From Candidatus Kapaibacterium sp. (GTDB taxonomy: Bacteria > Bacteroidota > Ignavibacteria > Kapaibacteriales > UBA4661), in contig JANYIG010000165.1 in the NCBI GenBank assembly GCA_025358765.1, forward strand, positions 6,024 through 70,023: DNA of 64,000 bases, in the 5' to 3' direction. Position numbers and translations under genes: made by a program. The notes beneath the pieces were generated by a model. The model did no database searches and was not told where the DNA came from. It saw only the letters and a program-made list of their open reading frames with translations. Positions 3,968 to 63,350 of this stretch are shown here, piece after piece. Numbering within the stretch: the stretch's first letter is position 1; every line of letters begins with the position of its first letter.

Positions 3968-4063
3968 TACTCATAATTTTGTAATTGGTCGTCTCTGAAT
4001 CGAGGAATGGAGCGATTATTTTAGCGATGAATGATGCACCGTCTGAGCCGCAACATAGCTCGG

Positions 4064-4612
4064 TCAAAAACTAATCGTCAGTACATTCGTTGCGGCATTA
4101 AAGCTGCTCGCAAAACGCTGAAGCGGTCCTGATGCCGGTCCACTAAGACGGGAACCATCTTTAGAAGAATATTCTGAGCCATGACACGGGCAAACCATCA
4201 CCGCGCCTGCCGAACTCGGCAAACCCACGTCGCAGCCCGTGTGCGTACACACCGCAGTCAGCACCAGAAACTCAGTGGTCGAGGAACGAATAATGATCAA
4301 GTTTCGCCCGCCATTGTTTGCGCCAAATTGCTTTGTCACGGCTCCACCCACATTCTTCAACGCCACTTCGTTGCTCACATTCAACGTAGCCGTAATGCCG
4401 GAACTTTTGATGGTCGTATTCTCGCAAGAATTAACGAGCGTTGTCAGCGCTCCGGCGGAAAGCGTCACGCCCAACATAGATGCGGCTTTCAGCAAAAAAT
4501 CGCGCCTATCGGTTGTTGTATTTTGTTCTGTGTGCTGAAATTCTTCAAAGCGTTCTGTAATCTGTGGTTCACGCTGTGGTTCACTGGTATGGTAAGGAGT
4601 TGTTAACGTCAT
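4064..4612 (-). CDS. Tat-exported Rieske [2Fe-2S] domain protein
   Basis: The Rieske boxes CTHTGC and CPCHGSEY lie 16 residues apart. There is a twin-arginine signal RRDFLLKAASMLGVTLSAGA. Start set at the first ATG (MTLTTPY...), 3 nt after a stop; the ORF-track start at 4759 is upstream of this. Confidence 0.75.
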   Translation of the reverse strand: MTLTTPYHTSEPQREPQITERFEEFQHTEQNTTTDRRDFLLKAASMLGVTLSAGALTTLVNSCENTTIKSSGITATLNVSNEVALKNVGGAVTKQFGANNGGRNLIIIRSSTTEFLVLTAVCTHTGCDVGLPSSAGAVMVCPCHGSEYSSKDGSRLSGPASGPLQRFASSFNAATNVLTISF

Positions 4613-4643
4613 AGTTCTGGGGCGAAAAAGTTGCGAAAAAAAA

Positions 4644-5852
4644 TTAATAAAAAATGTGAAGCTGCACCGTCCAGCGCGTGGATGTGTACGCATCGGTGTC
4701 CGTCCAACGGTATTCGGGGCGGAGTTCCACGTAGGGCAGCAGAAAGATTTGTGCTCCAACGCTAATTTGCTGGAATGCTAATTCCGTCACATCGTTCGGA
4801 ACGGCAATACGGGTGCGCCCTCGGTCATAGCGCACGAATGGTAGCAATCCCGTTACGGGTTGATAGCTAAGTTCTGCCGTCATATTTCGTGTTTGTCGCC
4901 CATCTTTAACCCCTGAAAGCGCATATTCACCCATCAACGAGAGCCTATCGGTTAAGCCAACACCGGCAAAAGCACTCAGGAACGTGAATGCTTTATTGTT
5001 CAGTACCGAAGCGCCGATGTAGCTGTTGATAACATGGTCTTCCGTGCGAAGCCAGAGCATGGCTTTGGCAGTCATGGTCGGTGATTTTGCCAATGTGGAA
5101 AAATTAGAATTTGAATCCAGCCCATCCAGCAGTGGTACGGTTTCGGATTTTTGATTAACGGTTTGCAGCTGCGAAAGAGATTTTGGCAAAAATGCACCCG
5201 CCGTAAGCGTGAGCCATTGGAGACCATCGTAGGTGATTTCTGCGCCATATTCCGCATAATTTGGTGCGATAAGTGGATTGTAATCTGCACCCGCAATTCC
5301 ACGCACAATCATCGTATGGTCGTCGTAGCGAACACCGATGGACGGCTGGAAAAACCCTACGCGAAGTTGTGGCGACGTGAGTGTCGGCTGAATCACCACC
5401 GATGCCGCCCATGACTGCTGACCGGCATAGCGAAGCGGTCCGGCATTATACGTACCTTCAAGAGTCAGCCAAGACGTTGCCTGCCATGCCGCGTAGAATG
5501 CCAATTGCATGGGAAAAATACGGCGTTCTGCTTCAGCAGAGGTTGGTTTACGGGCAGATTGCATACGAAAATCCAAACCGAACGTCAACGCCCCATCAAA
5601 GAACGAATTTGACTCACGGTCTAAATCGTAAAGCCAGCCTAAGCCGACGCTGCGTGGTTTTAACAACGCCATCTCTTTTTCCATGTACCAGCCAAGTTCT
5701 CCGCGCAAGCCAGAGCCTTGGTTGTTAACATGGCAGTTCAGACATTTATTCCCACTTAGCAAGGAAAATTGGGGCAGTGCGGTCACGCTGTACGGCACTA
5801 CAAGTACCAATGCAGCGCAAAGGGCGATAACGAAAACGTATCGTGATTTCAT
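4644..5852 (-). CDS. cyc2: Cyc2-like fused mono-heme cytochrome c / outer-membrane beta-barrel porin
   Basis: It has a Sec signal peptide (MKSRYVFVIALCAALVLVVPYSVTA). A single CXXCH (GNKCLNCH) sits 12 aa after the predicted cleavage site. About 350 aa of amphipathic beta-strand-like sequence follow, ending in the OMP C-terminal signature ...VQLHIFY. The 402-aa size fits short Cyc2 cluster-1 proteins. Confidence 0.6.
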   Translation of the reverse strand: MKSRYVFVIALCAALVLVVPYSVTALPQFSLLSGNKCLNCHVNNQGSGLRGELGWYMEKEMALLKPRSVGLGWLYDLDRESNSFFDGALTFGLDFRMQSARKPTSAEAERRIFPMQLAFYAAWQATSWLTLEGTYNAGPLRYAGQQSWAASVVIQPTLTSPQLRVGFFQPSIGVRYDDHTMIVRGIAGADYNPLIAPNYAEYGAEITYDGLQWLTLTAGAFLPKSLSQLQTVNQKSETVPLLDGLDSNSNFSTLAKSPTMTAKAMLWLRTEDHVINSYIGASVLNNKAFTFLSAFAGVGLTDRLSLMGEYALSGVKDGRQTRNMTAELSYQPVTGLLPFVRYDRGRTRIAVPNDVTELAFQQISVGAQIFLLPYVELRPEYRWTDTDAYTSTRWTVQLHIFY

Positions 5853-5912
5853 AATAGTTAGAGGGGTTGAATGATGATTATGATAAAATTCTCAATTCTT
5901 AATTCCCAATTC

Positions 5913-6344
5913 TCAATTATTCAACGCGCCCTGCCGCACCCACGAACGAATCTGGGCGATTTCGCACTCATTGAGCCTGCTGCCAAATGGCATTTGCGTA
6001 ATTCCGTCGGAGCCTTGCACGGCAAATACAATACGATTGCCGATAGTATTGCGCCGCACCGTGTTGTAAGCACTGAGGTTTACGCCGTTGATATTGCCAC
6101 CGGCATCGGAATGACACGATATGCAATTTTTGTCCAAAAGAGGTTGAATAGTCTTGCTGTAGCTCACGCTCGCTGTGTCGCACGGACCAGCTGGAATAAT
6201 AGTTGTCGTATCTTTTTTTTCAATGCCGCGTGCGGGTCCGCTAAAATTATCACAGGATGTAAGGTAGAGCGTACAAACACTAATAACGACCAATGCGATC
6301 AAAATACATAGTTGCGACGGGCGCTTGAGCCAAAAAATAGTCAT
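5913..6344 (-). CDS. Lipoprotein mono-heme c-type cytochrome
   Basis: The signal peptide carries a lipobox (ISVCTLYLTS-C). There is a single CISCH heme-binding motif. The protein is 143 aa and sits immediately upstream, on the same strand, of the Cyc2-like gene with a 60-nt gap. Confidence 0.6.
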   Translation of the reverse strand: MTIFWLKRPSQLCILIALVVISVCTLYLTSCDNFSGPARGIEKKDTTTIIPAGPCDTASVSYSKTIQPLLDKNCISCHSDAGGNINGVNLSAYNTVRRNTIGNRIVFAVQGSDGITQMPFGSRLNECEIAQIRSWVRQGALNN

Positions 6345-15749: not shown

Positions 15750-16241
15750 TTAGAGGATTGCAAGAGTGACCCGCGCAAATGGTGCAGAGTCAAGCGCATT
15801 GAGAATGGCGCTATGAAATACGATTGTCGCCTCGCGATGGGAAGGCAGCACGAGCATCGCTAATGTCTGCTCAAGCCCAAGCCACTGGTATTCGCTATGT
15901 TCCTCTGAAAGCTGTACCAAATCGCCAGCGTTATCACAATCATCTTCCGTCAACACCGCTCCAAAACACGGCACCAGAACCACTGCATTCCGTACCACGC
16001 TGAAAAAACTTCCTACGTAGGGCAGCACCCAAAGCTCTTGCGGCTGAATGCCTGTTTCTTCGTGGATTTCACGAAATGCCGTTTGCACGGCTGTTTCTCC
16101 CTCATCAACTCTGCCCGTGACGGGTTGCCAAAGGTTTGGATAGATGGATTCGCTGGGCGCACGACGGAGGCAAAGAAAAAGCCAATCGCCATCTTGATTG
16201 CGACGCACAATGTGCGCCTGAATCATTGTTGGAGTGTTCAT
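15750..16241 (-). CDS. NUDIX hydrolase
   Basis: Nudix box GRVDEGETAVQTAFREIHEETG. Confidence 0.7.
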   Translation of the reverse strand: MNTPTMIQAHIVRRNQDGDWLFLCLRRAPSESIYPNLWQPVTGRVDEGETAVQTAFREIHEETGIQPQELWVLPYVGSFFSVVRNAVVLVPCFGAVLTEDDCDNAGDLVQLSEEHSEYQWLGLEQTLAMLVLPSHREATIVFHSAILNALDSAPFARVTLAIL

Positions 16242-16365
16242 AGAACCAGTGCGAACAGAAGATGTGCGATACGATGATTTGTGTGACGCTGCGGGTTTTG
16301 AAGCCTTTTCATCAGCGATTGCGAGATTTTTCGTACATTTGCAGTTCGCTTAAAGCAGTTTGCTT

Positions 16366-16527
16366 AATTGAAGTTTAGATAAATTCCTGAAAACCGCATC
16401 AAACCTTACGCGCAAGAACCCCACTCAATCTCCCCTTATCAGGGGAGAAGCAAGACGCAACACGTCTTCGTGGCGGCTTGCAGAGGGATGATGCGCTTGA
16501 GGGTAGCCAAGGTTATCTAAACTTAAA
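16366..16527 (+). repeat. MITE-like element copy A (~155 bp; 12-bp TIRs aagtttagataa / ttatctaaactt)
   Basis: It is nearly identical, in reverse complement, to 58414..58575. An internal hairpin tcccct-tatc-agggga is present. The flanks carry cagttcgcttaa on both sides. Confidence 0.6.
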
Positions 16528-16580
16528 CTTAAAGCAGTTCGCTTAAAAATACGTAAAAAACTTCTGATGGACGAATCCCC

Positions 16581-18968
16581 ATGGCAAAACTTACGCTTAA
16601 CCGCGTCACTCCTAACGAACAGACTCCCCCATCATCAACCACAGGTGAGAATCTTCTGGCTCAACTGAACGATGTGCAGCGCGAGGCGGCAAGCGTGATT
16701 CAAGGACCACTCTTAATTTTGGCAGGTGCGGGAAGCGGCAAAACTCGTGTGCTGACGTTCCGTATTGCGTACATGATTGAACAGGGCATTGCCCCGTGGA
16801 ATATCCTCGCGCTGACGTTCACGAACAAGGCTGCAGGCGAGATGAAGGAGCGCATCGCGCATCTGGTGGGCGAAGACAAAGCACAGCGCATCTGGGCTGG
16901 TACGTTCCACTCGCTTTTTGCGCGAGTTTTAAGACGCGAAGCAGAGGTGTTGGGTTATACGTCGTCATTTTCCATCTACGATGGCGATGATTCGTTGTCG
17001 CTACTTCGAGCCACGATGAATACGCTCGGCATTTCGCAGCAAAATTTTTCGCCGCAAGCTGTTCGAGGTGCTGTTTCTGGAGCGAAAAATAAATTTATCG
17101 GTTGGCAAGAATACGCAAACACGGCGGGCAATGTGTTTGAGAAACAGGTCGGTTTGATTTACAAAGACTACGAAAAACGCCTGCGATTGAACAACGCTAT
17201 GGACTTCGACGACCTGTTGTTGAACATGATTCGTCTGTTGCAAAGCAGCCCGCAGATGTTAGAGAAATATCAACAGCAGTTCCGGTATATTTTGATAGAC
17301 GAATACCAAGATACGAACAAGGCGCAATATCTTGCTGTTAGCCTTCTTGCCCAGAAAGAGCGTAACATCTGCGTCGTGGGCGACGACGCGCAAAGCATCT
17401 ATCGGTGGCGCGGTGCTGATATCCGCAATATTCTTGATTTTGAGCGCGATTACCACGATACCAAAGTCGTGCGTCTCGAACAAAACTATCGTTCCACAAA
17501 AACCATCCTCGAAGCCGCGAATAATGTTATCAATAACAACCAAAACCAGCTTAAAAAGGCGCTTTGGACAGATAACGCTGACGGCGAAACAATTCAACTT
17601 TTGCGTTGCCGTGACGACCGCGAAGAGGCGGAACAAATAGTTCGCAATATCCAAACCGACCGCCGCACGAGCGCACGAGATTTACAAGATTTTGCCGTTC
17701 TGTATCGTACCAATGCTCAGTCGCAGGCGATTGAAGATGCGTTGCGCCGCGAGAATATTCCCTATTTGATTGTGGGTGGTGTGTCGTTTTACAAACGCAA
17801 GGAAGTCAAGGACACCCTTGCCTATTTACGTGTGGTAATGAATCCGAACGACGGCGAGAGTCTGCTTCGCATCATCAACGAGCCGTCGCGCGGCTTGGGC
17901 AAAACCTCACTCGACCATCTGATTCATTTTGCTGAAAGCCAGTCTGCTCCTCTTTTTCAAGCGTTTGCACAAGCAGAAGGCGTGATAGGCTTACAGCGAC
18001 GCGCCGTAACGTCGGCACTTGATTTTGTGGCGCTCATCACGCGATTTCGAGAACAGAAGGACGTTTTGCGACCCGACGAATTAGCAAAATCGCTCGTGGA
18101 TGCTTCGGGACTACTCCGCGCCTACGAGGAAGACGGTACGGACGAGTCGCTCGACCGTTGGAATAACATCCAGCGCGTGTTGTCGCATCTTGCCGAATAC
18201 TGCGAACGCAATCCTGAGGCGCTCTTGGAGCAATACCTACAAGAAATTTCGCTCTTGAGTGACGTAGATGAAGTGAAGGCGGGTGGAAAACACGTAACGC
18301 TTATGACGCTGCACTCCGCCAAGGGTTTGGAGTATCCGGTGGTGTTCATTGCAGGTTTGGAGCGGGGGTTGTTTCCTTTTGCAAAAGCGGAGCAGATGCA
18401 AGAGGAAATGGAGGAGGAACGGCGATTGTTCTACGTGGGCATCACCCGTGCACGGCAAAAACTCTACCTTTCCCACGCCGAAAAACGATACCGTTTTGGT
18501 GAACTTACGTACCCAATGCCGTCGCCATTTCTGCAAGAAATCAAACCGGAATTGATGAACAACCCTTCTAACACCACGCAAAATCGGCTTGGCAGCGCGG
18601 GTAGCCTTACCATGTCGTCAAAAAGTACACCCTCAACAACGGGCATAAATGTTATCCGTTCTATGGACGACCTAAAATCACGGGGATTTCAGCCACCCGC
18701 AGCAAAAAAAACGCCAGAACGTTCGCAAACACGAACGCCGTTTGACGACGCTCCCCGTGATGAATCATTCTCGCAAGTGCCGAGTAAATCTGCAAGTGAA
18801 TTGCCGCGATTGCGCGTGGGCATGCGGGTTAAACATGAGATGTTTGGCGTGGGGCAGATAGTAGGCACAAGCGGTACAGGCACAAGCGCTCAGGTGGAAG
18901 TGTCGTTCCCACAGGTCGGCAAGAAAAAACTCATGCTTAAATTTGCGAATCTGATGGTGATGGATTGA
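16581..18968 (+). CDS. pcrA: ATP-dependent DNA helicase PcrA/UvrD
   Basis: Walker A GAGSGKTRVLTFRIAYMI, then the UvrD motifs (ILALTFTNKAAGEM, DEYQDTN, VGDDAQSIYRWRGA, QNYRST, and so on). Confidence 0.9.
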   Translation: MAKLTLNRVTPNEQTPPSSTTGENLLAQLNDVQREAASVIQGPLLILAGAGSGKTRVLTFRIAYMIEQGIAPWNILALTFTNKAAGEMKERIAHLVGEDKAQRIWAGTFHSLFARVLRREAEVLGYTSSFSIYDGDDSLSLLRATMNTLGISQQNFSPQAVRGAVSGAKNKFIGWQEYANTAGNVFEKQVGLIYKDYEKRLRLNNAMDFDDLLLNMIRLLQSSPQMLEKYQQQFRYILIDEYQDTNKAQYLAVSLLAQKERNICVVGDDAQSIYRWRGADIRNILDFERDYHDTKVVRLEQNYRSTKTILEAANNVINNNQNQLKKALWTDNADGETIQLLRCRDDREEAEQIVRNIQTDRRTSARDLQDFAVLYRTNAQSQAIEDALRRENIPYLIVGGVSFYKRKEVKDTLAYLRVVMNPNDGESLLRIINEPSRGLGKTSLDHLIHFAESQSAPLFQAFAQAEGVIGLQRRAVTSALDFVALITRFREQKDVLRPDELAKSLVDASGLLRAYEEDGTDESLDRWNNIQRVLSHLAEYCERNPEALLEQYLQEISLLSDVDEVKAGGKHVTLMTLHSAKGLEYPVVFIAGLERGLFPFAKAEQMQEEMEEERRLFYVGITRARQKLYLSHAEKRYRFGELTYPMPSPFLQEIKPELMNNPSNTTQNRLGSAGSLTMSSKSTPSTTGINVIRSMDDLKSRGFQPPAAKKTPERSQTRTPFDDAPRDESFSQVPSKSASELPRLRVGMRVKHEMFGVGQIVGTSGTGTSAQVEVSFPQVGKKKLMLKFANLMVMD

Positions 18969-19118
18969 CAAAGGATTAGACAACGTTACGACTCTTTGCT
19001 GACTTATCCTCTCGACTTATCCTCTCTGCAATTCCTCCACATCTTACTTTGGCAATGGCGGTTGAGCTGAGATGTCGTATGCAAGGTTTCATGGAAATTC
19101 CAAAATTTTATCTCGCTC

Positions 19119-30898: not shown

Positions 30899-31333
30899 AT
30901 GTCTGTTCTTCGTATATTTGGCTTTCTGGGACTTTATAGCACGGAAAACATCGTTACGGTGGCTTCTCCAAAAACCACAAGCATTATGAATACACTATCA
31001 GCCTACCACGAAGAAGAAGTGACTCAGAATACAGACACGTACACGAAATCATTCTCATCATTTCAAAACGCTGAGATGGATATTCTGCTCCACTCTCCGA
31101 TGCAGTGCGACGTTCAAACAAGTGACGATGGCGTACATATTGCCTATCCGCCGTTGAATCTTCACTCCTTTGGTGTATCTGAAACTGAAGCTCTGGATGA
31201 TTTTACTAATGAACTTTCCTACATCCACGCTCACTACCTTCATGCACCTGATGAAACGTTAACGAGTTATGCTCGAAGCATCAAATATGGCGTTTTATCG
31301 GTAGTCAAAGAGGTACGACGTGGCAAGTCTTGA
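30899..31333 (+). CDS. HicB-like antitoxin candidate (alternative ATG start at 30986)
   Basis: DDGVHIAYPPLNLHSFGVSETEALDDFTNELSYIHAHY resembles the HicB N-terminal RNase-H-like fold (DG-Y-a-P.LpG....G.T.eEAl). It overlaps the next ORF by 14 nt. Confidence 0.4.
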   Translation: MSVLRIFGFLGLYSTENIVTVASPKTTSIMNTLSAYHEEEVTQNTDTYTKSFSSFQNAEMDILLHSPMQCDVQTSDDGVHIAYPPLNLHSFGVSETEALDDFTNELSYIHAHYLHAPDETLTSYARSIKYGVLSVVKEVRRGKS

Positions 31334-31598
31334 CAGCAGGAAAGTTGAACGTGCATTAAAGAAAAAAGGCTTCATCGAAGAAGCTGGCGATCATAAATAC
31401 TTTCGGCTCTATGTTGACGGCAAAGATACAGGCATATTTACAAAAATGAGCCGTAATAATCAAGATGTTGGGGATGGGCTAATAAAGAAAATGGCAAACC
31501 AACTCAAGATGGAACCCTCATTTTTTAAAGCCTTTACCGATTGCACAAAAACCAACAATGATTATCTTGAGGAGCTTTTCAAGCAGAACATACTTTGA
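31320..31598 (+). CDS. HicA/YcfA-like toxin candidate
   Basis: KKKGFIEEAGDHKYFRLYV...GDGLIKKMANQLKM loosely matches the HicA consensus (GSHhh.rh ... tl.kIlkqlgl). It is 92 aa and translationally coupled to the upstream ORF. Confidence 0.4.
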   Translation: MASLDSRKVERALKKKGFIEEAGDHKYFRLYVDGKDTGIFTKMSRNNQDVGDGLIKKMANQLKMEPSFFKAFTDCTKTNNDYLEELFKQNIL

Positions 31599-31724
31599 TC
31601 ACTTCGCCATTCTACGTACTCGTAAGTGCTTTCCCAGTATAATTTTATGGTAAATATCAACAAGGGAAAGCGGGAAACGTCAACGTCAGAATTACATGTT
31701 TTTATTTTTTTTCGTAAACAGCGC

Positions 31725-32849
31725 ATGAATACAAGTGTCCGTCCGATTACGTCCGCAGAGGTGATGAAATTCATCAAATGTCAGTGGAATTTCTACAAAG
31801 GCGATCCAAACTGGGTTGCACCGCTTATTCAGGAGCGCAAAAAACTCCTCAGTACCGAAAAAAATCCTTTCTACCAACACTCGAAGATTCAGATGTTTCT
31901 TGCCGAGCGTGGCGGTGAAGTTGTTGGGCGCATTGCGGCTATTACGAACGACAATCACAACAAGAAATTTAACGACAAAGTGGGATTTTTCGGTTTTTTT
32001 GAGTGCGAGGACAATCAAGACACTGCCGACAAACTCTTCGATGCGGCACACCAATGGCTCCGCACACAAGGTATGGACACAGTTCGCGGTCCGGTCAATC
32101 CTTCAATGAACGATGAAGCGGCGTTGCTCGTGGATGGTTTCGATGAACCTCCGGTGATTCTAACGACCTACAACCCTCGCTACTACATGCAGCTCATCGA
32201 ACAAGCGGGCTACGCAAAGGCGAAGGATATGTTTGCGTACATCCTGAAACATGAGAATTACCAATCTGATAAAATGAAACGCCTACAAGCAGCTATCCGA
32301 GAGCGTTACAAGATTACTATCCGCGAGGTAAACCTGAAAGATAAGGCGCAACTGAAAAAAGATACGGACGCTATCAAAGACATCTACAACGCCGCATGGC
32401 AGAACAACTGGGGTATGGTTGCCTTCACCGATGATGAATGGGCAGCGCTTGTTAAGGATTTGAAGCCTATTGCCGACTCGCGCATTATCTACCTTGCAGA
32501 GGTGGGCGGAAAACCTGCGGGCTTCACGCTCGCGCTTCCGGATGTGAACCGTGCGCTCATTCACAGTCGTGGCGGCGGTTTGCTCGGCGCGGGTTGGGCG
32601 CTCGTGACCAAACGCAAGAAGGTCAATCTTTGCCGCATCATCGTGATGGGCGTATTCCCAGAATATCAAAAACTTGGCATAGATGCTGTTATGTATTCTG
32701 AAATCAGCGAGCGTTCCCGCGAGAAATATACCGAAGGCGGCGAAGCATCGTGGATTGCTGAGGACAACACGGCGATGAACCTTGCTCTGACAAAAGCAAT
32801 GAATGCTAAGATTTACAAGACATACCGGGTTTACGAACGCGGGATTTGA
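31725..32849 (+). CDS. Hypothetical two-lobed acyl-CoA N-acyltransferase (GNAT-like) protein
   Basis: Two repeats of a GNAT-like beta-alpha pattern (VGRIAAITND... and GKPAGFTLALPD...). Start moved to the internal ATG (MNTSVRPI). Confidence 0.35.
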   Translation: MNTSVRPITSAEVMKFIKCQWNFYKGDPNWVAPLIQERKKLLSTEKNPFYQHSKIQMFLAERGGEVVGRIAAITNDNHNKKFNDKVGFFGFFECEDNQDTADKLFDAAHQWLRTQGMDTVRGPVNPSMNDEAALLVDGFDEPPVILTTYNPRYYMQLIEQAGYAKAKDMFAYILKHENYQSDKMKRLQAAIRERYKITIREVNLKDKAQLKKDTDAIKDIYNAAWQNNWGMVAFTDDEWAALVKDLKPIADSRIIYLAEVGGKPAGFTLALPDVNRALIHSRGGGLLGAGWALVTKRKKVNLCRIIVMGVFPEYQKLGIDAVMYSEISERSREKYTEGGEASWIAEDNTAMNLALTKAMNAKIYKTYRVYERGI

Positions 32850-41354: not shown

Positions 41355-44300
41355 ATGCAGCCAATTTTTCTCCCGAACGATTACAACACCATCCTTGTTG
41401 ACAATTTTTTCCGCAACGTACCCGAACTTGAACGTAAACGCAGCCTGATAGCACAGTGGCAGGAGAACCTTCGCACGGGTTTCGTGGGTGACCACAAAGA
41501 GGAATCGCTACAATCGCTTTTCCTGACAACTATCTTTGCAGAAGTGCTTGGCTACTCGTATCAAGGTGATGTATGGAATTTGGAAATCGAACAAAGAACC
41601 ACGCACGATACCACCAAAAGCGACGGCGCATTAGGATTTTTCCGTGTTGGTGCAGAGCCAGACGTGCGTGCCGTGATTGAACTCAAAGCACATGGCATCA
41701 ATCTTGACAAACCTCAAAGCCAGCGCAGCGACACCCATACACCCGTCGAACAAGCATTTGACTATGCTCGCAAAATGGGTGCGCGGTGCGAGTGGGTAAT
41801 TGTGTCGGACTTTGAGGAATTGCGGCTTTATCGCTATCCCGATGCGCGGCGCTACGAAGAGTTTTTGATACCGAACCTCCTAAACCCCGCAACCGATGAC
41901 GATACAGGGATTGAAGCCTTCCAACTCAAGCGATTTTTCTATTTGCTCGCCAAAGACCGCCTTTTTTACGAGCGTGAAAAAGACTATGACCAAGCGCCCG
42001 TCAGGGTGCTTTACACGGGCAGAATCAACAGTTTGAAGACCATTACCGCAAAATTCTACGATGGTTACCGAACCCAGCGCGAACAGCTTTTCTTCACGCT
42101 GCGCCGCATGAATCCTACAACTGACTTTGATGAAGTTTTACAAGCCGCACAAAAACTTATTGACCGACTACTGTTTATGCGATTCGCCAGTGATGTCGGG
42201 CTAACCCTTAACGTGCTGGACGTTTCACGGAAATATTTAACAGCGCTCGCCGAACCCGTGCCGCTTCATGAACTGAATTTGGGCTGGCAATATGTCCGTT
42301 TGCTGTTCCGTTCGTTCGACAAAGGCTATAACAACAAGATTCCACCCTTCAACGGCGGTTTGTTTGCGCCCGACGAGCGTTTGGAGCAACTTCGTGTTCC
42401 CGACGAAGCGATAGAGACATTAGAGCGATTTTTGCTGAGTTACAACTTCAAGCATGACCTCAAAGTAGATATTTTAGGGCATATTTTTGAGCAATCTATC
42501 ACGGACTTAGAGCGCCTACGTCGCCTTAAACCAAGCTCTGCCGAAGCCGTGGACGCAAAGCGTACCGAAGAAACCTCTCAAGAGATTTCTAAAGAACACT
42601 CCACTTCTAAACGCAAACAAGAGGGCGTGTTCTACACACCCGAAGCCGTTACCGAATACATCATTCGCCAAAGCGTTGGCGCATGGCTCGCCGACTGCAA
42701 AAGCGAGATTCTGAACGTACTCGGCGTGGATGATATTTCTCAACCAGAGGATGATTTTTTGCGGTGGAAAGCCGACAACGCAGCAATCATGCCGGATTTG
42801 ACGTTTGCGCGAACAATCGAACTCCACCTTGCCTTCTGGGAGCGCTACCAGAGCGCTTTGGAGAGCATAAAAATTCTCGACCCCGCTTGCGGCTCCGGTG
42901 CGTTCTTGACGCGGGTGTTTGATTTTCTTTGGGACGAGTGGCGGGTGTTGCGAGCAGAAACAATCGCACTGCGTTCGTTGCTTGTGGAAGAACAGGCAAA
43001 AACACAGACTACACTTCTGCCGCTCCGCTCTGGCAATGACGGAATGTTAGCGCCAAAGTCTCGCAAAAAAGCCGTTCCCAAAGCAGCGACGAGTAATGAA
43101 ATTACAATGAGCATAGACGAGCATACAAACGAACGTGAAGAAATTCGCCTGAAAAAACGCATTATCACGGAAAACCTCTTTGGCGTTGACCTCAATATCG
43201 AATCGGTGGAAATCACGCAGCTTTCACTCTGGCTCAAAACTGCACATAAACAAGAATCGCTTGCAAACCTCTCCCACGCCATCAAGCGTGGCAATTCGCT
43301 CATCAGCAAACGCAGCGTTGCGGGTGATACGGCATTCAAATGGGATAGCGAATTTCCTGACGTGGCGATGGCGGGCGGCTTTGATGTGGTGGTTGGCAAT
43401 CCGCCGTACGTTAGCGCAAACAACATGGATTACCGCGAACGCGAGTATTTGAACAAGGAGAAGGATTTTACGACGCTCGCCGGAAAGTGGGATTTGTACG
43501 TTGCGTTCATCGAAAAAGGCTTGCGCCTACTGAAACCAAACGGCTATCTGTCGTTCATCGTTCCTTACGGGCTGCTTAATCAACCATTTGCAGAGCAGGC
43601 GCGGGCATTCATCCTCGACCATTATATGCTTTGCTCCATTGCAGATTTACACACCGTGCGTATCTTCGAGCAAGCCACTGTGCCGTGTTGCATTCCCGTC
43701 ATCAAACACGTGCAAAGCAGTAACCACGAGGTTTCTATCGTTATGTTGGAGGGTGACGAGTTCGTGGAGCAATATCGTTTGCCCGTGTCCACATATCAAA
43801 CAACAGCGTTGCGAATGTTTCGCACGGAAAATCTTGCGCTCACTACGGGCTTATTGGAACGCATCAAAAAACGCGGAACCTCGCTTGGCAACTTGTTTTA
43901 CGTCTCGACTGGTGCGGAGATTCATGGAAAAGAACATCGCTCCGAGCGCGGCAAACTTACAAGCGGTGCAAGCAAGTTTGATCGTCTGTACGACACACAA
44001 CGCGAGGGTTTGAAGCCTTATATCGAGGGCGCTGCCATTCCAAAATCGCCACTTGGACGCTACTGTTATCCCAGTATCAACTCCTGGCTTGATTACTCTA
44101 ACCCAGATGCCATGCGCTCCCCAAAGTTCTCCGAGCTGTTTGATAGCGAAAAAATTATTGTGCGGCGTAGCTCCGGCTTATTGGGGATTTTGGCAACATA
44201 TGATGAGAGAAAGGTCTATACATCCGAAAAATGTCTGCTTATCGTGAGCAAAACCGATGTGCCGCATGACCATGAACAGCACACGGAATCAAGCCCATAC

Positions 44301-44591
44301 TCGCTGAAATACCTTCTGGCTGTGCTAAACAGTCGTGTGATGGATTTTTACTACAAATCAGTGTATAGTGGTTTTATTGATGTGTATCCAAATTACTTGA
44401 AAGCCCTGCCCATTCCAGCTATCTCGCCCACCGAGCAAGAACCGTTTGTGCGACTTGTAAATGAAGTATTGGAATGCCGCAAGGCGGGTGAAGAGACGTT
44501 TGCACAGGAGCAAGCCATAGAGCGGCTTGTGGAGGCGTTGTTTGGGGTGACGGATGCGGACAGTGCGCTCATACAAGCTAATGCTCTATAA
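41355..44591 (+). CDS. Type IIL/IIG restriction-modification enzyme, MmeI-like (fused endonuclease plus gamma-class N6-adenine methyltransferase plus TRD)
   Basis: N-terminal PD-(D/E)xK-like block GFFRVG...VIELKAHGINLDK...EQAFDYA. Methyltransferase motif X (GVFYTPEAV), motif I (LDPACGSGAFL) and motif IV (VVGNPPYVS). A ~400-aa C-terminal region is consistent with a target-recognition domain. Total 1078 aa. Confidence 0.7.
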   Translation: MQPIFLPNDYNTILVDNFFRNVPELERKRSLIAQWQENLRTGFVGDHKEESLQSLFLTTIFAEVLGYSYQGDVWNLEIEQRTTHDTTKSDGALGFFRVGAEPDVRAVIELKAHGINLDKPQSQRSDTHTPVEQAFDYARKMGARCEWVIVSDFEELRLYRYPDARRYEEFLIPNLLNPATDDDTGIEAFQLKRFFYLLAKDRLFYEREKDYDQAPVRVLYTGRINSLKTITAKFYDGYRTQREQLFFTLRRMNPTTDFDEVLQAAQKLIDRLLFMRFASDVGLTLNVLDVSRKYLTALAEPVPLHELNLGWQYVRLLFRSFDKGYNNKIPPFNGGLFAPDERLEQLRVPDEAIETLERFLLSYNFKHDLKVDILGHIFEQSITDLERLRRLKPSSAEAVDAKRTEETSQEISKEHSTSKRKQEGVFYTPEAVTEYIIRQSVGAWLADCKSEILNVLGVDDISQPEDDFLRWKADNAAIMPDLTFARTIELHLAFWERYQSALESIKILDPACGSGAFLTRVFDFLWDEWRVLRAETIALRSLLVEEQAKTQTTLLPLRSGNDGMLAPKSRKKAVPKAATSNEITMSIDEHTNEREEIRLKKRIITENLFGVDLNIESVEITQLSLWLKTAHKQESLANLSHAIKRGNSLISKRSVAGDTAFKWDSEFPDVAMAGGFDVVVGNPPYVSANNMDYREREYLNKEKDFTTLAGKWDLYVAFIEKGLRLLKPNGYLSFIVPYGLLNQPFAEQARAFILDHYMLCSIADLHTVRIFEQATVPCCIPVIKHVQSSNHEVSIVMLEGDEFVEQYRLPVSTYQTTALRMFRTENLALTTGLLERIKKRGTSLGNLFYVSTGAEIHGKEHRSERGKLTSGASKFDRLYDTQREGLKPYIEGAAIPKSPLGRYCYPSINSWLDYSNPDAMRSPKFSELFDSEKIIVRRSSGLLGILATYDERKVYTSEKCLLIVSKTDVPHDHEQHTESSPYSLKYLLAVLNSRVMDFYYKSVYSGFIDVYPNYLKALPIPAISPTEQEPFVRLVNEVLECRKAGEETFAQEQAIERLVEALFGVTDADSALIQANAL

Positions 44592-49755: not shown

Positions 49756-49816
49756 AAAAATGCAGTTGTATGAGTGAGTATGTGTTTACAAGTATTGTTA
49801 TGCTTTCCCCCCTTCA

Positions 49817-50340
49817 TCTGTCATTTCGGCGCTGTGGTGAATCATAGTGAAAAAATAACGAAGTGACGCGGGTGAGGCATCACTTCGTATTCGTGCGCGG
49901 TGAAACACACGAGTTCGTTCCATACCTCCAATCGTCGCACAAAACGCCTTTTCACTCCCGTACAGGGTCTCATTCTGTCGGCGTTCTTCGTCTTGCGCTG
50001 CGTGGCTCTTCGATGTGTTCCTGGCATAATGAAGCGTTGGTGGCGCTTGTGGTGCATCATGGCAAACTATCGTGGTGGATAGCTTCCTTGCGTTGTGATG
50101 GTGTTTGGTGAGTCTATCGTGGTGATTTATCTGTGGTGATAGACACGTGGTGTTCAATCAGGCGTTCAAATCAATCGCGCCGAAATGACAGCGTTGGGAA
50201 ACTATGGTGACGGCATGAGACAGCATGAGTGCATTAGGTGAAGCGTGGTGGATGCTGTGGTGAAATCGTTCAAATACATAAGCCATCAAATTTCTCTGTG
50301 GTGATTTGCGGGATGTCAAAGAACACTATACTCATTTGGT
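49817..50340. repeat. Non-coding region with at least 10 copies of a YGTGGTGR heptamer family, bracketed by a 14-bp perfect long-range inverted repeat (tgtcatttcggcgc / gcgccgaaatgaca, ~360 bp apart)
   Basis: Seen directly. Copies include ctgtggtgaatcat, ttgtggtgcatcat, cgtggtggatagc, cgtggtgatttat, tgtggtgatagac, cgtggtgttcaat, tatggtgacggc, cgtggtggatgc, tgtggtgaaatcg and tgtggtgatttgc. Confidence 0.5.
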
Positions 50341-56908: not shown

Positions 56909-58291
56909 TTAATGCGTAGTTATCTCGTATTTCTCCAACATTCGGTAAAACGTCGCTCGCCCAATATTCAGTCGCTGTGCGGCTTCTTGGATATTCCCTT
57001 CAGTCACTTCCAGCGCGTGACGGATAGCGTGTTCTTTGATTTTATCCATCGGCAGGATGTCGCCGTTCGAGCGGAAAAGCGCAATTCTATCGCTCTCAGT
57101 ATTACCAGAGCCTGCGGTTTCAGATACGTCATCGGAAAGTTGCAGTTCTTGTTCGGAGATTAGGTCATCCTCGCTCAAAATTACGGCGCGTTCAATGGTG
57201 TGTTCGAGTTCACGAACATTACCGGGCCAATTATAATCATACATAACTTTCAGCGCTTTCCGCGCAAAGCCTTTGATGGAACGTTGATACTGTTCTGAAA
57301 AACGCTCCAAAAAATATTTTGCCAGCACTGGAATATCTTCGCGACGCTCGCGCAGGGGCGGCAATTTGATAGGAAACGATGCCAAACGATAATACAAATC
57401 CTCGCGGAATGCGCCTTGCTTGATGGCTTCGTGCAAGTTACGATGCGTTGCCGAGATGATACGGACATCTACATGCAACAATTCGTTGCCGCCCACACGC
57501 TCGAACTGCTTGGTTTGCAACACACGCAACAATTTCACTTGCAAGCTCATGTCCAACTCTCCGATTTCATCCAGAAACAGTGTTCCGCCGTTTGCTTGCT
57601 CAAATTTTCCGATTTTTCGTTGCACCGCTCCTGTGAACGAGCCGCGTTCGTGACCAAAAATTTCGCTTTCTAACAAATCGTGAGGAATAGAGCCGCAATT
57701 GAGCGCTACGAACGGACCATTTTTGCGACGGTCGCCTTCGTGCAATGCCAGTGCGATCAGTTCCTTTCCCGTTCCCGTCTCACCTTGAATCAGCACGGCA
57801 ATATCCGTATTCTGCACCTTGCGGATGAGCTTGAATACGCTTTGCATTGTGTCGCTCGTGGAGATGATGTTTGCAAACTTAATCTGTTCGGTTGTTGCTT
57901 CGGAGAGCTTTTTGACCTCGCTACTAAGCGCAAAGACCTGGAGGGCGTTGCGGACGGTAATTTCAAGTTTGTTGATATCGAGCGGCTTTTGGAGATAGTC
58001 GAATGCGCCGAGTTTGATGGTTTGCACCGCAACGTCAATTCTGCCTTGCCCCGAAAGCATAATTACGGGCGTATCAGGATACATTCTTTTGCATTCCTGA
58101 AGCGCTTCCACGCCATCCATGCCGGGCAGCATGATGTCCAGCAACACAAGTTCTGGAGCGCCGTTGGGCAGCGCTTGAACAAAATCATCGCCCCGCGAAA
58201 ACACGCGCACCTTGTAGCCCCACGACGTAAGGTTGTGCTCCAACAATAGCTGCAAATGCGATTCGTCTTCGACAACGTAAATGGTGTGCAT
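56909..58291 (-). CDS. Sigma-54-dependent Fis-family response regulator (NtrC-type)
   Basis: REC domain (LVLLDIMLPGMDG), AAA+ sigma-54 activator (GETGTGKELIA, GAFREDLYYRL), and a C-terminal Fis-type HTH. Confidence 0.9.
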   Translation of the reverse strand: MHTIYVVEDESHLQLLLEHNLTSWGYKVRVFSRGDDFVQALPNGAPELVLLDIMLPGMDGVEALQECKRMYPDTPVIMLSGQGRIDVAVQTIKLGAFDYLQKPLDINKLEITVRNALQVFALSSEVKKLSEATTEQIKFANIISTSDTMQSVFKLIRKVQNTDIAVLIQGETGTGKELIALALHEGDRRKNGPFVALNCGSIPHDLLESEIFGHERGSFTGAVQRKIGKFEQANGGTLFLDEIGELDMSLQVKLLRVLQTKQFERVGGNELLHVDVRIISATHRNLHEAIKQGAFREDLYYRLASFPIKLPPLRERREDIPVLAKYFLERFSEQYQRSIKGFARKALKVMYDYNWPGNVRELEHTIERAVILSEDDLISEQELQLSDDVSETAGSGNTESDRIALFRSNGDILPMDKIKEHAIRHALEVTEGNIQEAAQRLNIGRATFYRMLEKYEITTH

Positions 58292-58413
58292 AGAAGGATT
58301 GGTCAAATGTTGAATCAAATGTCAGAACCAGAGACAGTTAAATTGCATTGTGCAATTTACGGAATTTGTCTGATACTTATCATTTCTCTCGATATCTATC
58401 GGCAAGCTTCCTA

Positions 58414-58575
58414 TTTAAGTTTAGATAACCTTGGCTACCCTCAAGCGCATCACCCCTCTGCAAGCCGCCACGAAGACGTGTTGCGTCTTGCTTCTCCCCT
58501 TACAAGGGGAGATTGAGTGGGGTTCTTGCGCGTAAGGTTTGATGCGGTTTTCAAGAATTTATCTAAACTTCAATT
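58414..58575 (-). repeat. MITE-like element copy B (reverse complement of copy A)
   Basis: The same 12-bp TIRs and about 97% identity to 16366..16527. The hairpin loop reads tgta rather than tatc. Confidence 0.6.
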
Positions 58576-58770
58576 CCTAAAAAATAGACAAAAAATCATA
58601 TTTTTTGGGTAATCGGTTTTAGGAAATCAAATCACTTCTTTGGTATCTTTTTCATGCGATTCCCCTATTGCTCCGAGAATCACGTTTGAAAAATAATCGG
58701 AAATATTGTATATTTGAAATCTTTGCTGTGTGCAATCATTATGTACAACCAAACCGCGTTGTGACAATAT

Positions 58771-59298
58771 ATGCTTAAGTTCTCTATCAAAGGGTTAGCG
58801 GACGGAACTCATGCTATTCAAGCCACCGCAGAATGTCGCATGATTGCTGATATGTTCCCGGAATTTTTCGGGAGTATTCATGTTCGTGGCGAAGTACGAA
58901 AATTGGGCAAACGATATGTTGTTACGGGCGCTGCGGAATGTGATGCTCAGATGATGTGCGACTTGAGTGGTGAGGACTTTGTGGAGCGTATTCGTGCGGA
59001 ATTGGTGCTAAGTTATGTTGCCAATACACATTTGTTTCTTGAGCAACAGGGCGTTGCTGAACCTGTGCAGCCCTATTACATCCGCGAAGATGACACGGAG
59101 ATTGATTTGACCGAAGAAGTTCGCCAAGAATTAGGGGTAAATCTACCTCTGAAGCGCGTTGTACCCCAGTACCGTGACCGCGAGTTTGCAGAGTTATTCC
59201 CCGATATCGCGGCGGATACTCCAGAAAAAACGGACAATGAAACAGAGCATCCAATTGACGAACGCTGGGCGGCGTTAAAAAATATTTCGCTCAGTTGA
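58771..59298 (+). CDS. yceD: YceD/DUF177 family protein (large-subunit ribosome accumulation protein)
   Basis: Conserved position upstream of rpmF-plsX, with an acidic C-terminus and Cys pairs. Confidence 0.75.
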   Translation: MLKFSIKGLADGTHAIQATAECRMIADMFPEFFGSIHVRGEVRKLGKRYVVTGAAECDAQMMCDLSGEDFVERIRAELVLSYVANTHLFLEQQGVAEPVQPYYIREDDTEIDLTEEVRQELGVNLPLKRVVPQYRDREFAELFPDIAADTPEKTDNETEHPIDERWAALKNISLS

Positions 59299-62699: not shown

Positions 62700-63350
62700 A
62701 TGAATATCTTCTATCGTTGGTTAATACTTTTTACCCTTTTATTACCTCAAGTTGTATTTTCTCAAGTACCTCCAGATAGCCTTGGTCGTTCTGGCAATAT
62801 GGGTTTAGGAATTGTCTTAACGGGTGGGAGTACACTTATCCCAACTGCAATAGGTGGTGGGATTGTAGGTAAATATTGGTTGGGTAACCAAGATGCTTTT
62901 GTGGGCGGATTGATTTTTGATTTGATGGAAAGTTCGGAAAACAATGAAAAACAAGGTGTTGCTACTTCTGATAGTTCCTCAAAATCATCAGTTGGTATCA
63001 CCTTTATTGGGCGCTGGGAAAAACATTTCGCAATTAGTAAAACTGTATCACCATACCTCACACCTGGATTAGCATACAGTTTCTCCAAAGTGACGACAAC
63101 CTCGATAACTCAAAACATCAAAACAATAGAAGATGGATTGAGCATTGCAGCGACTTGTGGGATAGGCATTGAATATTTTTTTACCCCTTTGCTATCAATC
63201 GCTATCCAATCTGGTATATACGGCAGGTATTCAAGTATCCAGACATCAAGCAATAAGATTAACGACCCCGCAAAATCAAGTCTTAACAGAAAAACTTCAT
63301 GGACGCTCGGTATTAGTTCGGCAGCTATAGCTCTAACGATATATTTTTGA
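62700..63350 (+). CDS. Small outer-membrane beta-barrel protein (OmpW/OmpA-N-like)
   Basis: A signal peptide, about 8 amphipathic beta-strands, and a C-terminal ...ALTIYF aromatic terminus. Confidence 0.55.
   Translation: MNIFYRWLILFTLLLPQVVFSQVPPDSLGRSGNMGLGIVLTGGSTLIPTAIGGGIVGKYWLGNQDAFVGGLIFDLMESSENNEKQGVATSDSSSKSSVGITFIGRWEKHFAISKTVSPYLTPGLAYSFSKVTTTSITQNIKTIEDGLSIAATCGIGIEYFFTPLLSIAIQSGIYGRYSSIQTSSNKINDPAKSSLNRKTSWTLGISSAAIALTIYF

Follow-up and report, generated by a model that had tools for sequence, protein, structure and literature searches.

Among the described systems closest to the element reported here, Correia elements of Neisseria are bounded by terminal inverted repeats (TIRs) of about 26 bp and duplicate a TA dinucleotide, and bcr1 of the Bacillus cereus group, about 155 bp long, has inverted ends, a 5-bp duplication with the fixed target TTTAT and is found in mRNAs. 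Nezha of cyanobacteria and Chunjie of Geobacter are MITEs sharing their TIRs with known IS, and duplications of 5-7 bp occur in IS families such as IS1634 and the ISDol1 group of ISNCY. The window (the whole stretch of DNA that was analyzed, 64 kb in length) contains two copies, A and B, of a sequence which, judging by its structure and its relatives, is very probably also a MITE, i.e., a 160-bp non-coding, non-autonomous DNA transposon. The family is real and appears to be undescribed, yet it represents an ordinary kind of element; nothing relevant was found in the literature on its TIR sequence or on MITEs and IS in Ignavibacteria.

Copies A (16366-16527, plus strand) and B (58414-58575, minus strand) are identical in 158 of 162 aligned positions, and the initial annotation was right in describing two near-identical copies in opposite orientation. 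The identity ends sharply at both sides, the flanks being unrelated, and the pair is the sole long repeat revealed by self-comparison of the window (I1, 162 nt, 98%). The neighboring genes named at the outset agree with the Pfam assignments. Copy A occupies the divergent intergenic region between the genes of a NUDIX protein (15750-16241, minus strand) and the UvrD/PcrA helicase (16581-18968, plus strand), 53 nt upstream of the pcrA ATG codon, while copy B lies in the divergent region between the genes of an NtrC-type, sigma-54-dependent response regulator (56909-58318, minus strand) and YceD (58771-59298, plus strand). As to the limits of the element, the repeat as first described is real, but the element proper, with its bounds set by the TIRs of the family, is 160 bp long and spans 16368-16527 on the plus strand (copy A; nhmmer E = 8.6e-25 against the family profile) and 58414-58573 on the minus strand (copy B, inverted with respect to A; E = 2.4e-25). 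The extra shared AA (16366-67) results from the fact that the target-site duplications (TSDs) of the two copies, CTTAA and TAGGAA, both end in AA. The 12-bp inverted termini AAGTTTAGATAA / TTATCTAAACTT reported earlier are exact in A and B, but in the family consensus the TIR is 16 bp long.

The left TIR of copy A, TTGAAGTTTAGATAAA (16368-16383, plus strand), is the same as the family consensus, and that of copy B (58558-58573) reads TTGAAGTTTAGATAAA on the minus strand. Both left TIRs are thus perfect, while the right ones, GTTATCTAAACTTAAA in copy A (16512-16527, plus strand; consensus TTTATCTAAACTTCAA) and TTTAAGTTTAGATAAC in copy B (58414-58429, minus-strand element, given as read on the plus strand), are complementary to the left TIR in 14 of 16 positions, so that the window copies may no longer be mobile. 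The coding capacity of the element is nil, since stop codons break all six frames. The consensus TIR TTGAAGTTTAGATAAA (16368-16383 in the window) itself carries TGA, TAG, and TAA, each in a different frame; therefore, translation entering the canonical element from either side should end within 15 nt. The TGA is lost from the right TIR of the window copies, which allows a spurious ORF of 69-86 aa (58256-58516) to extend into copy B. In a protein search, the ORF overlapping copy B matched only itself, and the 69-aa “protein” in question has already entered public protein collections, which makes the element worth masking and annotating. The internal hairpin noted from the beginning is also present: an 8-bp stem, TCTCCCCT-TATC-AGGGGAGA (16429-16448, plus strand), in which the arms tctcccct and aggggaga enclose TATC in one copy and TGTA in the other, so that the loop holds two of the four A/B differences (16438 and 16440). 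Its counterpart in the related families is the homologous CCCTCTCCC...GGGAGAGGG module.

A scan of 185,579 species genomes (GTDB, one per species) for the TIR pair AAGTTTAGATAA-N(115-145)-TTATCTAAACTT retrieved 13 dispersed intergenic copies, 170-174 bp in length, on 12 contigs of the Ignavibacteria MAG JAAFIV01. Their inverted repeat is 16 bp, TTGAAGTTTAGATAAA ... TTTATCTAAACTTCAA, perfect in 11 copies and with one mismatch in the other two. The 12 copies of the main type share 91-99% mutual identity, which suggests a recent burst. Metagenome contigs, scanned with the 20-nt end pattern TTGAAGTTTAGATAAAHTYY, yielded 88 loci, mostly chance matches, of which four are true members: a 181-bp copy with the TSD ATTTG (L203), a 199-bp copy (L138), and two truncated ones (L181 and L208). 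Against the profile of all full copies, each of the two window copies scores E about 1e-25. The window elements have the TIR and the first ~43 nt (38/43) in common with the JAAFIV01 family, the overall identity being only about 50%; between species, the ends are conserved and the interior is replaced, as would be expected if the ends are transposase-binding sites. It is the A/T-rich outer TIR, and not the palindromic module, that varies least among the copies. In viral contigs, the 16-mer TIR gave 110 single matches and no locus with a plausible second end; the few second TIR matches (at most two mismatches) were on the same strand or 3.6-7.5 kb away, as by chance.

Several loci retrieved by these scans were rejected. 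A 1.7-kb “TIR pair” from the metagenome scan (L185) encloses BamD-, RpoZ-, and DapA-like genes and no transposase. Two matches of the genome scan (L011 and L017) lie at the start of an ORF for a 2Fe-2S ferredoxin-like protein; the DNA there is A/T-rich, a TSD is absent, and they are not regarded as members of the family. Nearly the same sequence occurs at L011 7-158 and L017 5743-5894, in MAGs assigned to two different phyla (Hydrogenedens and Nitrospirales), with a 13-bp perfect inverted repeat AAGTTTAGATAAA / TTTATCTAAACTT whose arms enclose the ribosome-binding site and the initial 38 codons of the ferredoxin-like gene. With respect to the MITE this repeat is probably a matter of chance; it could be a long-range mRNA stem.

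Target-site duplications were sought as the longest exact direct repeats abutting both ends of the 17 full-length copies (two from the window, 13 from JAAFIV01, and two from metagenomes). Exact TSDs of 5-7 bp flank 15 of them (5 bp in eight, 6 bp in six, and 7 bp in one); one of the remaining two has a 4-of-5 match, and the other is without any repeat. As a control, the left flank of each copy was paired with the right flanks of the others, and none of these 272 mismatched pairs reached 5 bp. In the window, copy A is flanked by CTTAA (16363-16367 and 16528-16532, plus strand) and copy B by TTCCTA (58408-58413 and 58574-58579, plus strand; TAGGAA in the orientation of the element), and in general the duplicated sequence differs from locus to locus. 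All 15 copies whose gene context was examined are intergenic, in tandem, divergent, and convergent settings; of the ten lying between co-directional genes, six are oriented with the genes and four against them, i.e., without bias. Given TIRs conserved across genomes, TSDs in 15 of 17 copies, 13 copies in JAAFIV01, and the lack of coding capacity, the early suggestion of a MITE-like mobile element has held up well. From the TSDs and the dispersion of the copies we infer that the element is mobile.

The supposed course of transposition is as follows. A transposase encoded elsewhere, most likely of the DDE type, would bind the 16-bp TIRs TTGAAGTTTAGATAAA, excise or copy the element, and insert it into intergenic DNA at staggered cuts 5-7 bp apart, and repair of the gaps would then produce the flanking TSDs. 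The mover, acting in trans, is presumably a DDE transposase; its type and identity, like any continuing activity of the element and any effect on the neighboring genes, are matters of inference. The TSD length, which is not fixed (5, 6, or 7 bp), is unusual for one transposase and counts against the MITE reading. A mover other than a classical cut-and-paste DDE enzyme, for example a serine or tyrosine recombinase or an uncharacterized nuclease, would accommodate this variation (8 × 5 bp, 6 × 6 bp, 1 × 7 bp), as well as two insertions found within short tandem repeats (see below) and the lack of a partner transposase in the DNA examined. Still, TIRs combined with short TSDs are the signature of DDE enzymes, several IS families have variable duplication lengths, the partner of a MITE is often missing, and the search covered little of each genome. 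In addition, the sole recombinase in the window is a XerC/D-type enzyme of the housekeeping type, encoded beside ftsQAZ. Taken together, these points make a mover of this other kind very unlikely.

The statement of the initial annotation that the window encodes no transposase agrees with our search: none was found among the ORFs of at least 90 aa (54 in total), 49 of which were scanned against Pfam, the five ORFs left out being 90-109 aa long; for nine of the 49, those with no Pfam family or only a generic one, an NCBIfam scan was added. About 140 kb of related loci likewise contained neither an autonomous element nor a transposase with these TIRs, and no autonomous IS with these TIRs came out of the metagenome scan (20-nt end pattern; pattern span of at most 600 bp). 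There were no solo TIRs in the related loci examined, and the ORFs flanked there by inverted repeats were only host genes between two MITEs and two ORFs without a family match. Orphan MITEs are common, so that the missing partner weakens the MITE reading only slightly. The exact TIR sequence can be used to seek this partner. Seven window ORFs of 119-407 aa (at 4181-6311, 30899-32849, 49798-50157, and 62700-63350) have no Pfam or NCBIfam match; the largest two (402 and 407 aa) were compared with PDB sequences without a match, and there is no evidence of their being transposases. Other genes of the window that deserve mention are those of a 1078-aa Eco57I/MmeI-type (type IIG-like) restriction-modification fusion protein (41355-44591, plus strand) and of a homologue of the 23S rRNA-intervening-sequence protein (PF05635; 23223-23591, minus strand), the latter lying in an efflux operon with a MacB/FtsX permease gene on each side.

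Short-read contigs with pcrA or yceD from several samples end inside the element. It might be argued that A and B represent a segmental duplication or an assembly artefact, since the window contains only two full copies and short-read assemblies fragment at this very sequence. However, the identity stops exactly at the TIRs, each copy has its own TSD, and elements ending in these TIRs occur in assemblies produced independently by other projects. A dispersed repeat should itself cause contig breaks instead of arising from them, and the element thereby explains the breaks in short-read assemblies of this organism at both loci. The search for further copies gave 13 in a related MAG and four in metagenomes, and the unrelated flanks show that the two window copies are not parts of a larger duplicated segment. 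We see practically no probability in a duplication or an artefact, and the MITE remains the preferred explanation.

The subfamily to which the window copies belong is represented, in the window and the fetched contigs (part of the genome), by only two full copies, one extra junction, and one weak relic. The junction was found in GCA_043724355.1 (L218 1-160, JAYSMU010000447.1), where an unrelated flank follows the yceD side of copy B; the TIR at the join is a variant, TTTAAGGTTAG, and the flanks share no TSD. This could be a further copy, but is probably a chimeric join across two MITE copies. The possible relic, a decayed left end AGATAAAATT...CATGAAACCTTGCAT (19058-19115, minus strand), is without the outer TIR bases and is weak (nhmmer E = 0.026); it sits between the convergent pcrA and multicopper-oxidase genes. 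An empty site was sought via the neighboring genes, and every contig found with pcrA or yceD either has the element or breaks inside it; the NUDIX product had no record in this search. As for other pcrA loci, identity does not exceed 73% even in the nearest ones, which lack synteny: the closest named PcrA relatives, from Candidatus Kapaibacterium and Ignavibacteria MAGs, have 65% identity or less, and the best other match has 73%.

The flanks of copy A need a separate explanation. The sequence CTTAAAGCAGTT(T/C)GCTTAA is present on each side, which makes an apparent 19-bp direct repeat. When copy A and one CTTAA are removed, the site becomes GCAGTTCGCTTAAA-GCAGTTTGCTTAAA-GCAGTTCGCTTAAA, i.e., three tandem 14-mers. 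Copy A thus seems to have been inserted into a 14-bp tandem array GCAGTTYGCTTAAA, the left part of which occupies 16341-16367 (plus strand) and which resumes at 16533-16547. The most satisfactory account of the 19-bp repeat is a 5-bp TSD within this pre-existing array, since the array outruns the repeat, no mutation is needed, and the other loci show TSDs of 5-7 bp; a true 19-bp TSD would require one substitution and is considered less probable. The array GCAGTTYGCTTAAA lies directly downstream of a promoter-like box of pcrA and is composed of palindromes that overlap (AAGCA-GTT-TGCTT and GCTT-A-AAGC); the relatives do not have it in front of pcrA. It may act as an operator or be connected with the history of the insertion. 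A second case of this kind after copy A was observed in L006, where a copy of the second MITE family described below (4014-4169) also lies within a short tandem repeat, AAATTTCCTTGT x2, with the TSD CTTGTAA.

A promoter-like block, TTTTTCGTACATTTG (16326-16341, plus strand), with a TAnnTTTG-type -7 box at 16334-16341, is located upstream of copy A. In a longer form, AGATTTTTCGTA(C/G)ATTTGC (16324-16343 in the window), this block or a close variant of it precedes pcrA in four of five relatives (PcrA 69-73% identical), and its distance from pcrA in the window and in the relatives (L222 9946-9966; L223; L224; L225) is 49-117 nt; the TAnnTTTG box is found within it in the window and in three of the four relatives. 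The box fits the -7 promoter consensus of Bacteroidota-type sigma factors, which makes the block a candidate promoter. Copy A is situated between this box and the pcrA ATG and, therefore, is probably transcribed within the 5′ leader of pcrA, of ~235 nt, as a strongly folding hairpin (-62 kcal/mol). In other words, a 160-nt hairpin has probably been added to the leader of a repair helicase gene, a case of a MITE possibly altering expression. A weaker box of this type precedes the regulator gene, ~50 nt downstream of copy B; the two copies follow no shared positional rule and are therefore treated as passive insertions, the effect on the leader being regarded as a side-effect of insertion and not its purpose.

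The strong folding of the element raises the question of a structured RNA, i.e., of a duplicated small-RNA gene or a cis-regulatory leader, in which the hairpins would be under selection and the inverted termini would serve as a closing stem. Indeed, on both strands the element forms a single long hairpin whose stability greatly exceeds that of shuffled sequences (-62.3 kcal/mol, z = -6.1, on the plus strand and -63.7 kcal/mol, z = -5.4, on the minus strand), A and B each face the adjacent downstream gene, A being probably within the pcrA leader, and the hairpin loop accommodates half of the A/B differences. However, the strands fold equally well, as would those of any inverted-repeat DNA. In the alignment of 14 members (alifold), covariation contributes +0.28 kcal/mol, essentially nil beside the folding term of -79.04, and changes are compensatory in 2 of 57 pairs. 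The initial annotation had taken the drift of the loop with preservation of the stem for a feature typical of structured RNAs or recombination hairpins. Three of the four A/B differences are unpaired and one changes a C-G pair to U-G; with 52 of 160 positions unpaired, the probability of three or more unpaired differences is about 0.10, which is not significant, and on four differences this lends the argument no weight. No Rfam family was matched at the gathering score in the whole window and two related loci, and with E up to 10 the locus of copy A gave chance-level matches only (GlsR4, 21 bits vs. a cut-off of 70; whalefall-1, 15 vs. 37). The tRNA/tmRNA scan found nothing, and scans for sigma-70 promoters and intrinsic terminators, which do not cover Bacteroidota-type promoters, detected no site within A or B. 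An RNA gene would have no exact TSDs abutting its ends; the related copies between co-directional genes lie both with (six) and against (four) the direction of transcription, and the interior is swapped between species while the ends are retained. A function as structured RNA is hence very improbable.

The interior of the element has a history of its own. A profile search revealed that the interior of the JAAFIV01 copies also occurs without the TIRs of the family, in two forms. One is a second MITE family, 142 bp in length, with the TIR CTCACCTTACGCAC / GTGCGTAAGGTGAG and 7-bp TSDs, found in JAAFIV01 at L006 4021-4162 and L008 3857-3998; its core is the interior of the TTGAAG-ended family. The other is the bare palindromic core, CCCTCACCC...CCCTCTCCCAGAGGGAGAGGG...GGGTGAGGG, ~130 bp, which has neither outer TIR set and is present in several related genomes as a free-standing, REP/REPIN-like palindromic repeat (L223 2912-3042 and 20952-21079; L012 6766-6865; L019 7690-7808; L018 4732-4891). 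In the related families, the interior is made up of a pair of palindromic G/C-rich modules in inverted arrangement, CCCTCACCC..CCCTCTCCCAGAGGGAGAGGG. It is these modules, free-standing in intergenic DNA as well, together with the long hairpin made by the entire element, that speak for a REP/REPIN-type origin, i.e., for paired palindromes moved by a RAYT (Y1 HUH) transposase. Yet each family has its own TIRs with abutting 5-7-bp TSDs, and REP/REPIN elements are not known to generate TIRs and TSDs of that kind; no Y1-transposase/RAYT domain was found by Pfam in the 49 window ORFs, and the conservation is highest in the outer A/T-rich TIR instead of the palindromic module. We therefore give little credence to a REP/REPIN-type element. 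Elements derived from the palindrome-associated IS200/IS605 group have subterminal hairpins, insert beside a fixed tetra- or pentanucleotide, and lack both TIRs and TSDs; such a derivation was rejected in view of the TIRs and the variable TSDs.

As the window element holds a diverged copy of both the end and the core of the second family (ACCTTACGCGCAAGAACCCCACTCAATCTCCCC...GGGGAGA), the family looks chimeric or layered. A more elaborate version of the MITE reading could be built upon this: an outer A/T-rich TIR module would have taken over the end and the core of another MITE family, the latter having arisen around a free palindromic repeat; a hitherto unrecognized transposase would make variable staggered cuts of 5-7 bp and be able to enter short tandem or palindromic repeats; and insertions like A in the pcrA leader would act as strong RNA hairpins retuning the expression of DNA-repair and regulatory genes. 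We consider this full scenario rather unlikely.

The element can serve to trace recent transposition in Ignavibacteria/Kapabacteria-like bacteria, from which hardly any mobile elements have been described (no literature matches), and the understanding of how such elements work is left unchanged. Like Correia elements and bacterial MITEs in general, it is short (~100-160 bp), non-coding, intergenic, bounded by TIRs, and hairpin-forming, Correia elements being present in dozens of copies and often co-transcribed. However, there is no sequence similarity to Correia elements, the TIRs are of 16 bp and the TSDs of 5-7 bp, and the host phylum (Ignavibacteria/Kapabacteria-like) is different. With bcr1 it shares the intergenic location, the strong folding, and the lack of a linked transposase, but the duplicated sequence and its length vary here, and both the sequence and the host are unrelated. 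Nezha and Chunjie resemble it in the combination of a conserved TIR and subterminal part with a variable interior and in bursts of near-identical copies (91-99% in JAAFIV01), whereas no TIR-sharing IS was found for the window family. The inverted pairs of G/C-rich palindromic modules, the intergenic location, and the long hairpins are reminiscent of the RAYT-moved REP/REPIN elements; here, in contrast, outer A/T-rich TIRs and TSDs are present, and no RAYT gene was seen. IS1634 and the ISDol1 group are possible candidate partners judging by duplication length; the TTGAAG... ends matched no IS here. What is unusual in the family is the variable 5-7-bp duplication, the missing partner, and the layered tie to another MITE family and to a free-standing palindromic core.
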